Assembly: GCA_964552775.1 (NCBI GenBank)
Contig: CAZKIH010000011.1
Span: 15,206 to 79,205, forward strand
Length of the DNA stretch: 64,000 bases
Source of the DNA: an uncultured Ignavibacteria bacterium
GTDB taxonomy: Bacteria; Zixibacteria; MSB-5A5; CAIYYT01
Direction: 5' to 3'
The position numbers were made by a program, and so were the translations under genes. Shown piece after piece: positions 1 through 6,573 of the stretch. Every line of letters begins with the position of its first letter. Position 1 is the first letter of the stretch. The notes under the pieces are model-generated. The model saw only the letters and a list, made by a program, of their open reading frames with translations. It did not search any database and was not told the DNA's origin.

Positions 1-323
1 GGGTTGGCAGCTGTTGAAGGAACGTGCTCTTCATAGTGGGTAATGAAACCATTTTCCCACTTCAGAACCTTGAGTTCCTTCTTCAGATTCGGATCCTTGA
101 ATGTGATTTGACCTGACTTGCGATTCACTTGCGATGAATCGAAGGCCCACTTGGCGATACCAACGTTATCGTCGGACTCGCGGCTGATCTTGATCTTGAG
201 ACCGGTCGGAACCGAACTCGGCTTGCCGTCGGCAAGATCATGCGGGGTGAAGAGTTCGTAGCTCACCGAGTGAACCTTGTCGAACTTCTCGCCATCGATC
301 AACAGTTCTACTTCCTGTGCCAT
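1..323 (-). CDS. hcp: T6SS tube protein Hcp (TssD), 3' end truncated by window edge
   Basis: Minus-strand ORF starts at ATG 321-323, preceded by an AGGAGGAAA Shine-Dalgarno. Translation MAQEVELLIDGEKFDKVHSVSYELF... stays open to position 1. Immediately downstream of tssBC, as in canonical tssB-tssC-hcp order. Confidence 0.6.
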   Translation of the reverse strand, partial: MAQEVELLIDGEKFDKVHSVSYELFTPHDLADGKPSSVPTGLKIKISRESDDNVGIAKWAFDSSQVNRKSGQITFKDPNLKKELKVLKWENGFITHYEEHVPSTAAN

Positions 324-432
324 TGCTTGTTTCCTCCTAAGTATTCAGTTCGTTTCTATATTGACTTCGTTTTATATCGAACCATTCCTGCCTGCAAACA
401 AACTGTCGCCAGATGCCTGCCGCGGTTCGAAA

Positions 433-1839
433 TTATTTTACTGCCGTCTGGCCTGCGTCGTCAACCATCGCTTCAAGTTTCACTACATACTGCTTGATCG
501 GCGTCTTCGTGTTCAGCGCAACTTCCAGCAGCATTTGCTGGTTTTCGATCATTTCGTTGGTGGCAATAACATTGCAGGTGAATCCGTTGATCACCTTGTT
601 GCGTTGAAGCAGGCTTAGGAACTTGTTCAGGTCGCCGTCGATGGACTTCTTCAGCTTGTCATCGAAGCCCTTGTACACCTGCTGATTCAGGTAGTTGCGC
701 ATTACCTTATAGATGTAATCGTAGGTGCGCTTAATGGTGTAGTTCCGGAAGCGGGCATCCTTTGCCAACGTGTCGGCACCCATCGCCACGACATCACCGA
801 CGTCGCCCTGCCAGTTGATCACGCAGTTAACACCCTTCTCGTTGAGCTTGGTGTTTTTCACCTCATTCAACTTGATTCTGGTCGACTGAATTCCGGCCAA
901 CTTGCCGTTGACCTTTCCGGCGGACGGAGCCTGAATGCCGATGTCATTGTCGTTCTTATAGACCAACCCGGCGACCAAGGATGACGGTGGGATCCAGAGT
1001 GGGTCCTTGTCAAAGCGACTCTCCGGTTTGTCGGCCTTAACGTAGTTGCCGAATACCGAGACGTAGGCCTTATAATCGGCGTTGCCGCGCAAATCATCGT
1101 AGGACGGATCGTCCAACTCATCCGAAAGCTCTTCGTAGGTATTGAAGTGCTTGAAATCGGTAAAGATTTGCAGTTTGCTTGGCATTCCCATGTCTCGGGC
1201 TATCGTGTCGATATCCTTCACGCTGCCCAGATAGCCGGGAATGCAGCAAAGCGAGTAGCAGTTGGTGATATCATAGAGTCCATAGATGTCGTGAATCTGC
1301 CGATTGATATGCTCAAACTTCTCCCGATCGTTCGGGTCGGTAAGATCATTTATGCCGGCGTTTGCGAAATATACGTAGACCTCCGCATCCGGCCGAGCCA
1401 TAGCGTTCTGGAAGAACAGGTCTACGCCGCGGTAGGCCGTCTCAAGTGGTCGAATCGCTTCGTGAATGCTCTTCATGTTCTGGCTGATGTTCTTGTCAGC
1501 CTCGGCAATCATATTATCCAGCTTGTCGAGTGCGGCGTCATCGGCGACATCGTTGCCTTCAATGAAACTTGCCCAGAGCGACAATCTCTGCTTAAGTTGT
1601 TTGCGGCGATCCTTGAATTCATCCGAACTCAAGAACTTATTGAATGACTCATTCTTTGGGTCAAGAAACTTGACCCCCTCGATATGCAAACCATCCTGGC
1701 TCTTGAAATGCGAGAGATGGTCCTTGACGACCTCGTATCCGACGAAACCGGCTCCGAGGATATCCTTAAGGTCGGCTTTTTCTTTAACCTTTACTTCAGC
1801 CTGACCCTGTGGTTCTTGTTCTTTTTCCTGGTCTGACAT
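433..1839 (-). CDS. tssC: T6SS contractile sheath large subunit TssC (VipB)
   Basis: 468 aa; length and composition fit the TssC family. AAGAGGAAA RBS upstream. Sits directly after tssB with a 17 nt gap. Confidence 0.8.
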   Translation of the reverse strand: MSDQEKEQEPQGQAEVKVKEKADLKDILGAGFVGYEVVKDHLSHFKSQDGLHIEGVKFLDPKNESFNKFLSSDEFKDRRKQLKQRLSLWASFIEGNDVADDAALDKLDNMIAEADKNISQNMKSIHEAIRPLETAYRGVDLFFQNAMARPDAEVYVYFANAGINDLTDPNDREKFEHINRQIHDIYGLYDITNCYSLCCIPGYLGSVKDIDTIARDMGMPSKLQIFTDFKHFNTYEELSDELDDPSYDDLRGNADYKAYVSVFGNYVKADKPESRFDKDPLWIPPSSLVAGLVYKNDNDIGIQAPSAGKVNGKLAGIQSTRIKLNEVKNTKLNEKGVNCVINWQGDVGDVVAMGADTLAKDARFRNYTIKRTYDYIYKVMRNYLNQQVYKGFDDKLKKSIDGDLNKFLSLLQRNKVINGFTCNVIATNEMIENQQMLLEVALNTKTPIKQYVVKLEAMVDDAGQTAVK

Positions 1840-1856
1840 GATTTCCTCTTAGCCGT

Positions 1857-2312
1857 TTACAGTTTCGCGATATAGGACTTAATTACGTTCAGGAACTCGG
1901 CCTTCTTCTCCGGATTGGCAAGGTCCTTCTTCAGCTTGGAGTTCGGTTTCTCCAGAAGGTTCTTGAAATTGCGCAGTATCTCGACCTCGTTGTACTTCTC
2001 CTGCAGATACTGGTTCTTCTGAATGATCTCCATCGAACCAAAGTCCTTCATCGCATTGAATTCAAGCTCGACCGATTCTTCTGAACCGTCCTGCTTATTG
2101 ATCGTGACCTCGTGAGATGGGCGAAACGTACTGAAAACCTCCTTGAGGTTCTTGCATCTGGTCAAATCCGGTTCCTGCTCTTCTTTCGAATTCAGCTTGG
2201 TCAGATAGACCATCTTGTTCGACGGCAGCAGATCTACAGGAATAGAGTCACTCTTTTCCTTGTATTCTGTCGTGCCGATATGCGGGGCAGCGATCTTAAA
2301 TTGATCCGCCAT
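1857..2312 (-). CDS. tssB: T6SS contractile sheath small subunit TssB (VipA)
   Basis: 151 aa. Segment VELEFNAMKDFGSMEII matches the conserved VipA/TssB core (VELNFKSLADF...). Confidence 0.8.
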   Translation of the reverse strand: MADQFKIAAPHIGTTEYKEKSDSIPVDLLPSNKMVYLTKLNSKEEQEPDLTRCKNLKEVFSTFRPSHEVTINKQDGSEESVELEFNAMKDFGSMEIIQKNQYLQEKYNEVEILRNFKNLLEKPNSKLKKDLANPEKKAEFLNVIKSYIAKL

Positions 2313-4865: not shown

Positions 4866-5095
4866 ATCCTCTTCACAGTAAGGGGTGCGAAGTTGTCTCG
4901 CAGTTTGAATGCGCCTAAACTTTGAAGGTACAATCCCGATTTTTGAGTGTCAAGATTAATGTTCATCCGCCTAAATCTCTCCGATTCCATTTAGACCACA
5001 AACTTTGACGAGAACACGACTCCATTTTATCAATCTTTTGTCATTCTACAACCCGATTACCCAAATAGTCTCATCTCGGATCGCTGTTCTTTCAC

Positions 5096-6130
5096 TCAAC
5101 CGCCAAGGAGACGATCAATGAATCCTCTCTTGCGGGCTCGTTCAACTTGAAACGACCGCAATCTCAGAAAATCAGTCAGCGTCTTGGCCGGGTAGTCATA
5201 ACTCGAACCCTTGAAATAGTCAACGAGTGCACTCTCCAGATCAAGTAGGGTCTGCACTCTGCGCTTCGGTTCATGTTCGATCATCATATTGACGATGCGA
5301 GCTAGAGCCTTCAACAAAGTCCGCATTGCAGTATCTTTGTAAGAAGGACTCAACGAGTCCGCATTCTCGCGAAAGTTCTCGCGGATGTTCTGACGCACTT
5401 CGAAGACATTTCCGCCAAAATAAGGATAGCGACCAGTCATCATCTCGACCATCATTAGTCCCAGTGAGAATATGTCCGAGCGCCGGTCGGCGTAGCCATT
5501 CTTGAGAAGCTGTTCCGGCGATTCGTAGACGTTCAACGAATACGGCAGGTCCAACTTCAGGCGATCGCACAGGTGACAGACCGGAAGCATGTCTATGTCG
5601 GTCACCATGACCCTGCCCTGAGTAGTGACAATCACGTTCTCGGGCCTGAGGTTCTTGTGCAGAGGTATCAGATTTCCCATGCCTGGCGACGGTCTGACCC
5701 CGTGAATCTGATTGAGTGCTTGCATGATGCCCTGGGCGATTAGTGCAACCAGGTCTGGATGAAGTGGAGCGTTTTCTGCAATGATCGAACGTAGGCTGAG
5801 GCCATCCACATATCCGTATTCCAGCATCAGTATCTCGTTATGTAAAACGAGCCCGCGGTAGGGTTGGATAAGGTTTCCCGTGAACTCGAAATATAGATGG
5901 CTCTGCTTATTGAAGAGCTCAGCTACTTCGTGATGATGCGACAGGCGACGGCGCAACACTTTGAGTCGTACCTGCTCATTGTTGTCAAGCCGTCGGGCAC
6001 GATAGCAGAAGCTGAGTGGGCCTTCGCCGATTTTGTTTTTGTCGACGACGTAATTCTGGAATCTTTCGGGTAGCGAGGGGTCATCGGAAACCGCGAATTC
6101 CGCAAATCGTCCATGATAATCTTGCGTCAT
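5096..6130 (-). CDS. Hanks-type Ser/Thr protein kinase-like protein (PpkA-like), predicted catalytically impaired
   Basis: Gly-loop IGEGPLSF, Lys in VRLKVL, SPE motif, DIFSLG. The catalytic-loop HRDLKPxN is replaced by HKNLRPEN (Asp to Asn), and DFG is replaced by DID. Confidence 0.7.
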   Translation of the reverse strand: MTQDYHGRFAEFAVSDDPSLPERFQNYVVDKNKIGEGPLSFCYRARRLDNNEQVRLKVLRRRLSHHHEVAELFNKQSHLYFEFTGNLIQPYRGLVLHNEILMLEYGYVDGLSLRSIIAENAPLHPDLVALIAQGIMQALNQIHGVRPSPGMGNLIPLHKNLRPENVIVTTQGRVMVTDIDMLPVCHLCDRLKLDLPYSLNVYESPEQLLKNGYADRRSDIFSLGLMMVEMMTGRYPYFGGNVFEVRQNIRENFRENADSLSPSYKDTAMRTLLKALARIVNMMIEHEPKRRVQTLLDLESALVDYFKGSSYDYPAKTLTDFLRLRSFQVERARKRGFIDRLLGG

Positions 6131-6231
6131 CTTATCCTGTGAAACTCTCAGGTGACAAGCCTATGCCCGAGCGCTGTCCCCAGAAAAGACAGGCCGGGAT
6201 GCTTAATATGTTTGATTCTTGACTACGTGAG

Positions 6232-6573
6232 TTATCCGAAACTCGGATTGGCTTCCATGTCGCGACTATCTTGCACCGCGAAACGAATAACTGTCTGTAG
6301 TCCAACTTTGATCAGGTCGTTGTTGTTCAGGAGAGTCTGCTCTTTTTTTATGCCGTTGATAGTCGAACCATTGCGCGAAAGATTCGTGAAAAGAAAGGCA
6401 TCGCCGCGCCGGATCACCGCAAAGTGTTCTCGGCTTATCGCCGAGTCTTCATCCGACAATACGAAATCGCACTTCTCACTCGACCTGCCAACTCGGAATT
6501 GAACGGCATCGGTCGAGTACTGCCGTCCACGGTCGGGACCCTCTTCAACAACCAAAACAGGCTTCAATGGCAT
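6232..6573 (-). CDS. FHA-domain protein (forkhead-associated, phosphothreonine binding)
   Basis: 113 aa with the FHA signature ...GRSSEKCDFVLSDEDSAISREHFAVIRRGDAFLFTNLSRNGSTINGIKK... Confidence 0.75.
   Translation of the reverse strand: MPLKPVLVVEEGPDRGRQYSTDAVQFRVGRSSEKCDFVLSDEDSAISREHFAVIRRGDAFLFTNLSRNGSTINGIKKEQTLLNNNDLIKVGLQTVIRFAVQDSRDMEANPSFG

Follow-up and report, generated by a model that had tools for sequence, protein, structure and literature searches.

Among the subtypes of type VI secretion system (T6SS), the one that comes closest to the locus described here is T6SSiii, which has been reported in the Bacteroidota only, with none found among over 20,000 complete genomes from elsewhere (PMC10781749). 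In the published view, T6SSiii branches basally within T6SSi-iii, and the membrane complex made of TssN, TssQ, TssO, TssP and TssR is its obligate, founding feature (PMC10781749). Which membrane complex was ancestral has been left open: it could have been the proteobacterial one, the Bacteroidota one, or neither (PMC10781749). Here we analyse a T6SS locus in a stretch of DNA of 64,000 nucleotides (the window; GenBank assembly GCA_964552775.1, contig CAZKIH010000011.1, forward-strand positions 15,206 to 79,205) from an uncultured Ignavibacteria bacterium that GTDB places in the Zixibacteria. Zixibacteria and Bacteroidota both belong to the Fibrobacteres-Chlorobi-Bacteroidetes (FCB) superphylum. 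We found no literature linking T6SS to Zixibacteria or Ignavibacteria, and papers that name both Zixibacteria and type VI secretion do so once each. We consider it likely that these genes make up the half nearest the promoter of a chromosomal Zixibacteria T6SS cluster, which has a T6SSiii-like core and neither of the known membrane complexes, TssJLM or TssNQOPR.

Sheath, tube and baseplate

Seven co-directional open reading frames (ORFs) lie on the minus strand at positions 1-6573 of the window, running from an FHA protein to the tube protein TssD/Hcp (Table 1), with intergenic gaps in gene order of 101, 230, 37, 20, 17 and 109 nucleotides. The plus-strand ORFs across this region are short, overlap the array genes and were treated as spurious. 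An earlier note, made from the sequence without database searches, had read the array as a T6SS locus in this gene order, and the domains found in the seven genes bear that out.

Comparison with protein families showed that the sheath and tube belong, by their best matches, to the Bacteroidota (T6SSiii) families PF17541 and PF17642. TssC matches PF17541 with E=2e-50 and 172 bits over model positions 20-421 of 430, as against 24.8 bits for Phage_sheath_1C and 20 bits for the T6SSi model TIGR03355, whose cut-off is 271. TssD, scored on a full-length ortholog, matches PF17642 with E=4e-22, and its solved relatives are T6SSiii Hcp proteins only: the Bacteroidales TssD 7yw0 (E=1.2e-12) and 6bdc ('Hcp1'). 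The hidden Markov models that the earlier note had named for TssC (PF05943 and PF18945) and for Hcp (PF05638) gave no match at E<=0.01, so its description of the core as canonical does not hold; the Bacteroidota sister families take their place. The model it named for TssB, PF05591, scored weakly on the single protein (22.2 bits, below the 24-bit cut-off). The ClpV-type ATPase domains were found as it predicted. A profile of nine TssB orthologs matches solved T6SS small sheath subunits (9n4v_B, E=2.8e-6; 4ps2; IglA, 3j9o, E=3.7e-3), and tssB and tssC are adjacent, 17 nucleotides apart.

When compared with solved structures, TssC matches the sheaths of extracellular contractile injection systems (eCIS) and phages only, through its conserved C-terminal core (Afp3, 2.5e-7; a phage tail sheath family, 1.5e-6; also Pvc3 and All3325), which fits T6SSiii as the basal branch of T6SSi-iii (PMC10781749). 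The concern voiced earlier, that the sheath-like proteins might be of phage or eCIS type, is thus half borne out, because the sheath does match phage and eCIS sheaths, but TssB, ClpV, TssG, TssK and the Bacteroidales-type Hcp keep the locus a T6SS. The presence of TssB, ClpV, TssG and TssK argues for excluding an eCIS.

The array does run off the window edge, as had been claimed, since a contig (L001) that is 100% identical to window positions 1-3005 reaches 531 bp beyond position 1 and holds the full 137-amino-acid (aa) TssD together with the first 116 codons of a VgrG-like gene. The downstream genes were read from this contig, from L030 and from more than 20 related loci, using relatives at 73-98% TssC identity. 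The identical contig and the collinear relatives give a whole cluster of 15 genes and about 16 kb, in which TssD is followed by genes for VgrG, a TssE-like protein, a TssF-like protein, TssG, TssK, and proteins of 303, 629 and 271 aa. L030, which comes from the same sequencing run as L001, holds the genes for TssF-like (partial), TssG, TssK-like, and the 303-, 629- and 271-aa proteins. The expectation that the remaining baseplate and membrane-complex genes would lie beyond position 1 is therefore right for vgrG, tssG, tssK and the tssE- and tssF-like genes; by Pfam and NCBIfam, the 15-gene cluster contains no TssA, TssJ, TssL or TssM, and no PAAR protein or phosphatase.

Between subclades, VgrG varies far more than any other protein of the cluster, at 35-46% identity where TssC is at 73-87% (L003 12018-13859 compared with L007, L012 and L017). 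Such variability would be expected if VgrG were a spike, or a carrier of effectors, under diversification, although its C-terminus showed no recognisable toxin domain.

A ClpV-type ATPase encoded by two genes

The ClpV-type (TssH) ATPase is split between two genes. The N-half carries the Pfam domains Clp_N, AAA and AAA_lid_9, corresponding to the Clp_N domain, the AAA+ D1 ring, its lid and the start of the middle coiled coil, and it aligns to positions 2-457 of the ClpB model (411 bits) and 3-439 of the ClpV1 model (367 bits). The C-half carries AAA_2 (E=1.4e-67) and ClpB_D2-small (E=1.3e-22), corresponding to the end of the middle domain, AAA+ D2 and D2-small, and aligns to ClpB positions 521-852 (473 bits) and ClpV1 positions 505-836 (330 bits). 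Because the N-half ends at ClpB position 457 and the C-half begins at 521, the cut lies within the middle coiled-coil domain, and this domain is shortened as well. The nucleotide-binding motifs are intact in both proteins, with Walker A at 215 and Walker B at 283 of the N-half and at 106 and 174 of the C-half. Both halves are as conserved as TssB and TssC, and the C-half is 76-95% identical in relatives.

At the junction between the two genes, 16 genome loci were compared, and in every one of them a stop codon closes the N-half. The spacers in relatives, which are 17-104 nucleotides long and differ in sequence and relative frame, lead each time to a Shine-Dalgarno-like site and an ATG. In three distant genomes at about 40% TssC identity (L026, L034 and L035), one of them a complete 3.4-Mb chromosome, the ATPase genes are also separate, encoding 487-491 aa and 365-367 aa and overlapping by 4 nucleotides, and the split ATPase lies directly upstream of tssB in every locus examined. 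Comparison thus showed the split to be stable across the lineage: all the Zixibacteria loci examined have it, even those where TssC identity has fallen to 40%. Judged by this pattern, the split is old and maintained and the product is to be read as a real two-polypeptide enzyme rather than a pseudogene.

An origin of the split as a pseudogene or an assembly error was considered and is ruled out by its conservation across loci. Frameshift-broken genes do occur in three metagenome-assembled genomes (MAGs), where they affect VgrG, TssC or TssF (L004 12018-13858, L019 10001-11456, L027 14219-15969). These are probably assembly errors and, unlike the ClpV split, they fall in other genes and differ from one MAG to the next. 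A search of a representative library with the N-half gave as its top matches a few full-coverage proteins of 463-486 aa; the library includes metagenomic fragments, so that split forms outside this lineage are not countable from it.

Genes at the two ends of the cluster

Three genes follow tssK in every recovered contig that extends upstream, and our comparison showed them to be always present in the related loci examined. The 303-aa protein has an all-helical model (predicted local distance difference test score, pLDDT, 83) and is tail-anchored, with one transmembrane segment at 257-280. The 629-aa protein is predicted to have an N-terminal cytoplasmic GTPase with invariant G1, G3 and [NT]KxD motifs, then a single transmembrane segment at about 336-360, and then a helical region that ends in a well-predicted beta-sandwich. 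Both topologies are the same in the distant L026, and the GTPase and transmembrane part is 30% identical in distant clusters. Against DO-GTPase2 (PF19993, cut-off 27), every close-clade ortholog tested scores 24-26 bits and three distant orthologs score 17-19 bits, while three orthologs of the 271-aa protein score 22.9, 23.9 and 26.9 bits against GAP1-N2 (PF20013, cut-off 24). A faint match to IcmF-related_N, the N-terminal NTPase of IcmF/TssM, recurs among the 629-aa orthologs at 12-17 bits. Homology of this protein to TssM is not supported, as that match is faint and a profile search of the PDB returned one non-significant match (a putative lipoprotein, E=0.2).

Nor do these proteins look like the Bacteroidota membrane complex. 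No protein of the cluster matches TssN, TssQ, TssO, TssP or TssR in Pfam or NCBIfam, libraries that may not hold models for all five. By published topology, TssN has five transmembrane helices, TssQ, TssO and TssP each have an N-terminal transmembrane helix and a periplasmic domain, and TssR is a 790-aa lipoprotein; none of these is matched by the cluster proteins (one tail-anchored, one GTPase with a transmembrane segment, one soluble). We infer that the three terminal genes stand in for the absent TssJLM or TssNQOPR complex, their products acting under GTP control as a membrane anchor or as a switch for firing.

At the promoter-proximal end, the distant clusters differ from the one in the window. 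Five extra envelope-type genes stand there upstream of clpV, in the position that the FHA and kinase genes have in the window (L026 1-6755, L034 1-6728, L035 1-6720). They encode a large protein with a weak OmpA-family match, a PQQ beta-propeller protein, DcrB, a protein of about 310 aa, and a protein of 527-1053 aa that has a LysM domain in one ortholog (L035).

In T6SSi, threonine phosphorylation pathways involve PpkA, PppA and Fha1 in Pseudomonas and PpkA, TssL and Fha in Agrobacterium, and the earlier note had likened the FHA and kinase genes of the window to such a pair. The FHA protein matches PF00498 (E=5.4e-12) and, over the FHA region only, the TagH model TIGR03354 (48.9 bits), and it keeps the phosphothreonine-binding residues (GR at 29, SREH at 47, NG at 68/73). 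The kinase-like protein matches Pkinase (E=7e-23). Its catalytic loop reads HKN in place of HRD (aa 158-160; codons 5651-5659), with N160 aligned to the HRD aspartate of PAK6 and PknB, which makes control by threonine phosphorylation doubtful. Among ten orthologs, the window's included, this position is N in eight, D in one and S in one; K57 (ATP-binding), N165 and D178 (the DFG position, in DID) are invariant in all ten. The two loci without Asn, L012 (5724-6758, HRD) and L013 (5516-6550, HRS), have no detected FHA gene, and every locus with a detected FHA gene has the loop H-K/R-N. The pseudokinase HER3 has HRN at the same place.

The analogy to a phosphorylation switch is incomplete in other ways as well. 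The 344-aa kinase-like protein has no transmembrane segment or sensor domain, and a Pfam scan of the cluster genes found no PP2C phosphatase. Its gene is the fastest-evolving of the set, at 45-76% identity, and the FHA/kinase pair, present in the window's subclade, was not detected in several related clusters or in the distant ones. The pair therefore looks like an accessory, subclade-specific regulatory layer, in which the kinase-like protein is more likely a pseudokinase scaffold or an atypical kinase than a PpkA-type phosphorylation switch.

Table 1. Genes and sequence elements of the T6SS cluster and its origin-side neighbours, with positions in the window
Feature	Position	Strand	Size	Details
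FHA protein	6232-6573	minus	113 aa	first gene of the array
Hanks-fold kinase-like gene	5096-6130	minus	344 aa	
Promoter-like TTGACA-N17-TACCTT	4925-4953	minus		in the 230-nucleotide kinase-clpV gap, upstream of the ATPase gene
AAA+ N-half (ClpV/TssH)	3444-4865	minus	473 aa	
Spacer between ATPase genes	3407-3443	minus	37 nucleotides	TAG stop upstream, AAGGA ribosome-binding site, ATG
AAA+ C-half (ClpV/TssH)	2333-3406	minus	357 aa	
TssB, small sheath subunit	1857-2312	minus	151 aa	
TssC, large sheath subunit	433-1839	minus	468 aa	
Bipartite motif GAACC-N15-CGAC	405-428	minus		just after the tssC stop, upstream of tssD
TssD/Hcp tube protein	1-323	minus	first 107 of 137 codons	truncated at position 1 of the window
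VgrG	beyond window		612-620 aa	Phage_GPD and Phage_base_V; VgrG_rel 157 bits; TIGR01646 101 bits (intact 613-aa ortholog)
TssE-like	beyond window		114 aa	no Pfam match; matched by hhalign (E=2.6e-4) to the gp25-family protein that L026 has in the equivalent place
TssF-like	beyond window		583 aa	position, size, two independent weak baseplate-J matches over the same residues from 442
TssG	beyond window		~305 aa	PF06996, 43 bits, E=5e-11
TssK	beyond window		~490 aa	PF05936 25.8 bits (cut-off 23.4); TIGR03353 E=2e-10
DnaA	10046-11419			origin-region neighbour
DnaN	11655-12764			origin-region neighbour

Two intergenic elements may divide the array. The TTGACA-N17-TACCTT element includes a CTTGACA that is invariant in nine aligned orthologous kinase-clpV regions, with variable flanks. 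It probably serves as promoter for the structural operon, in which case fha and the kinase gene would be transcribed apart from it. The motif GAACC-N15-CGAC occurs nowhere else within the cluster; its GAACC and CGAC(AGTT) blocks are invariant in 10/10 orthologous tssC-tssD spacers, with a variable stretch between them, and we interpret it as a putative promoter of the extracytoplasmic function (ECF) sigma type. With two promoter-like elements, the array may comprise three transcription units. Inspection by eye found a TTTCGAACC/GGTTCGAAA inverted repeat in seven of the ten tssC-tssD spacers, for which RNAalifold predicts no pairs in a consensus RNA structure. A generic promoter and terminator scan of positions 1-7000 gave counts not above shuffled controls, and Rfam gave no match over the whole window.

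The locus was also said to adjoin the replication-origin gene set, and it does so, with dnaA some 3.5 kb away. The window has, upstream of the FHA gene, genes for a YdjM-like membrane protein, a Mrp/NUBPL ATPase, NifU, DnaA, DnaN and an IS200-like transposase, and farther along the window are YidC, MnmE, MnmG, GyrB, GyrA and AlaRS. Since the order DnaN-DnaA-NifU-Mrp-FHA is repeated in two MAGs (97% TssC identity), the locus is a stable chromosomal feature beside origin-region genes; G+C across it is unremarkable. The transposase, of the Y1 type (PF01797, E=2e-9; 12877-13350), lies immediately downstream of dnaN. A 563-aa beta-lactamase-family protein with a DUF3471 domain (17607-19298) is encoded amid the housekeeping genes of the origin region. 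A 485-aa pentapeptide-repeat protein (47552-49009) adjoins gyrA (49049-51523) on the same strand, an arrangement that recalls the gyrase-binding proteins of the Qnr/MfpA type. At the other end of the cluster, as seen in relatives, the next genes in L031 encode a 176-aa protein with a signal peptide, in convergent orientation, and YchF, TPR proteins and peptidase M1, and in L023 malic enzyme comes next. A conserved, unannotated 175-176-aa signal-peptide protein is convergent to the last cluster gene in both, which represent two subclades (L031 11021-11551 and L023 12812-13339, both minus).

A TssC scan of species-representative genomes found 18 loci at 73-98% identity. The closest relatives (98%) are labelled candidate division Zixibacteria, and the others Zixiibacteriota, 'uncultured Ignavibacteria' or 'uncultured bacterium'. 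In a TssC protein search, a tight clade at 73-97% identity is followed by a drop to about 40% in many other Zixibacteria MAGs, where nearly all of the homologs bear the label 'hypothetical' or 'DUF5458'. These clusters may therefore escape surveys for T6SS in environmental genomes.

Proposed working, competing readings and comparison with known systems

If the parts work as their families suggest, TssB and TssC would form a contractile sheath around a TssD/Hcp tube, which would be tipped with VgrG and built on a baseplate of TssE, TssF, TssG and TssK. After firing, a ClpV-type AAA+ unfoldase with two stacked rings would disassemble the sheath. Its two polypeptides, divided within the middle coiled-coil domain, would supply the N-domain and D1 ring in one case and the D2 ring in the other; the halves could re-associate through their coiled-coil ends. 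The tail-anchored helical protein, the membrane GTPase with its periplasmic beta-sandwich and the GAP1-N2-like partner would serve as a GTP-controlled anchor or firing switch, and the FHA and kinase-like proteins might add accessory regulation, the latter more likely as a pseudokinase scaffold. We tentatively suggest, at somewhat less than even confidence, that this is a distinct Zixibacteria T6SS subtype, with a T6SSiii-like core, a two-polypeptide ClpV, and, in place of TssJLM and TssNQOPR, a third, independently recruited membrane module of DO-GTPase/GAP1-N2 and tail-anchored proteins, to which deeper Zixibacteria branches add envelope proteins bearing OmpA, LysM and beta-propeller domains.

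Several observations weigh against this interpretation. The case for an anchor is one of position, topology and co-occurrence; all but one of the DO-GTPase2 and GAP1-N2 scores fall just below the Pfam cut-offs; and the model of the 629-aa protein is poor (pLDDT 63), with weak Foldseek matches to Ras, G-alpha and EngB at E of at least 0.012. No periplasm-spanning or outer-membrane component is visible in this clade's clusters, and the five envelope-type genes of the distant clusters have no homologs in the window or in the clade's loci, so part of the anchor may be lacking, or it may be encoded elsewhere. TssE and TssF are weakly assigned, their profiles giving against the PDB no match and one at E=1.5, respectively. 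No effector, immunity or PAAR gene was recognised in the cluster, and the ATPase scores better on ClpB than on ClpV1 models in both halves. All of the sequences are from MAGs and metagenome contigs.

Other readings of the same genes can be set beside this one. A canonical proteobacterial T6SSi under PpkA/PppA/Fha control, with TssA and TssJLM just past the window edge, would account for an array headed by an FHA protein and a Hanks-fold kinase, followed by a ClpV-like ATPase, TssB, TssC and Hcp, and for the faint IcmF/TssM-like match (12-17 bits) of the 629-aa orthologs. We give this reading almost no weight, given that TssC and TssD lie outside the T6SSi families and match PF17541 and PF17642, that the downstream cluster recovered from the identical contig and relatives has no TssA, TssJ, TssL or TssM by Pfam or NCBIfam, and that the kinase is without a catalytic Asp, transmembrane segment, sensor domain or phosphatase. 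It is also very unlikely that the locus is a non-T6SS contractile injection system (CIS), Afp/PVC-like and extracellular or Streptomyces-like and cytoplasmic, that sits beside a Clp ATPase by chance. The structural matches of TssC to eCIS and phage sheaths only, the weak matches of the TssF-like protein to baseplate-J proteins of such systems and to nothing else, and the absence of a recognised membrane complex all point that way, but the full-length TssC match favours PF17541 over Phage_sheath_1C (172 against 24.8 bits), the solved relatives of the tube protein are T6SSiii Hcp only (Bacteroidales TssD and 6bdc), and a separate small sheath subunit, TssG, TssK and a ClpV-type ATPase directly upstream of tssB in every locus are all present, with no tape-measure, tail-fibre or terminator gene among the 15 genes.

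That the locus is a decaying, non-functional remnant, in which clpV is broken, the kinase is dead and a membrane complex is lacking, is highly improbable. An ATPase in two ORFs, a kinase Asp replaced by Asn, and the lack of any known membrane complex or effector are what decay might leave behind, yet all 15 genes are found whole and in the same order in many independent MAGs at 50-98% protein identity, the Walker motifs are intact, and the ATPase split has its own ribosome-binding site and ATG and is kept to 40% TssC identity, whereas the genuine frameshifts in L004, L019 and L027 look different, hitting other genes and being unshared. The last alternative concerns the ATPase itself, which might be no dedicated ClpV but the general ClpB disaggregase of the cell, put to use by the T6SS as happens in Francisella. 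Its preference for ClpB over ClpV1 models (411 against 367 bits for the N-half, 473 against 330 bits for the C-half) is consistent with borrowing. We nevertheless regard this as unlikely, because the split ATPase is fixed immediately upstream of tssB in every cluster examined, and because about 60 positions of the ClpB middle domain (458-520), the part used for DnaK coupling, are unmatched.

If a T6SSiii-like core does operate here with a membrane module of its own, the membrane complex would be a freely exchangeable part of the T6SS. The Zixibacteria system would then provide an outgroup for judging which membrane complex, if any, was ancestral; a system from a sister phylum that has the same sheath and tube families and neither complex is the comparison that the ancestry question needs. 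The ATPase would be a natural experiment in which a double-ring Clp unfoldase has been split at its middle domain. The terminal genes could, for the first time, tie T6SS firing to a DO-GTPase/GAP1 switch, for which only a predicted part in conflict systems has been put forward until now.

As described by Kaur et al. 2020, the DO-GTPase/GAP1-N2 'GTPase-centric' systems have, as is predicted here, a TRAFAC-type GTPase, after which come a C-terminal transmembrane segment and a beta-sandwich outside the cytoplasm, and a GAP1-N2-like protein encoded immediately downstream of the GTPase (PMC7159879). The paper does not use the term T6SS and names 'type VI' once (PMC7159879). Unlike the systems as described there, the locus has only one GTPase gene and lacks both an FNIII-repeat component and a variable effector (PMC7159879). 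The pair here is moreover a constant part of a T6SS operon, and its family scores lie at or just under the Pfam cut-offs.

Among contractile systems, eCIS (Afp, PVC) and the CIS of Streptomyces and cyanobacteria share with this locus the C-terminal sheath core, its nearest solved-structure match, and a J-like wedge protein; unlike it, they have a one-piece sheath and no TssB, ClpV or TssK, and their particles are released or cytoplasmic. Francisella T6SSii, with its IglA/IglB sheath and disassembly by ClpB, is likewise a divergent T6SS with a ClpB-like disassembly ATPase, and its IglA is also matched by our TssB profile, but its sheath and tube families differ, and the ATPase here is cluster-encoded and split. 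The T6SSi systems with threonine phosphorylation resemble the locus in having an FHA protein and a Hanks-fold kinase at the head of the cluster, and the T6SSi order tssK-tssL-tssM is echoed in a tail-anchored inner-membrane protein and then an NTPase-bearing membrane protein after tssK. In contrast to T6SSi, the locus has HKN and not HRD, a kinase with no transmembrane or periplasmic domain, no partner phosphatase and a bare 113-aa FHA domain; the best family of its GTPase is DO-GTPase2 and not IcmF, and it has no TssJ or TssA. From the T6SSiii of Bacteroidota, known in Bacteroides fragilis GA3 and Flavobacterium johnsoniae, the locus is set apart by its Zixibacteria host, the undetected TssN/Q/O/P/R, a ClpV in two genes, the terminal GTPase/GAP1-like pair and the subclade's FHA/kinase-like pair. 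What it shares with T6SSiii is the pair of TssC and TssD families, PF17541 and PF17642, and the universal set of TssB, C, D, G, H, I and K, with candidate TssE and TssF proteins, and without TssA or TssJLM.

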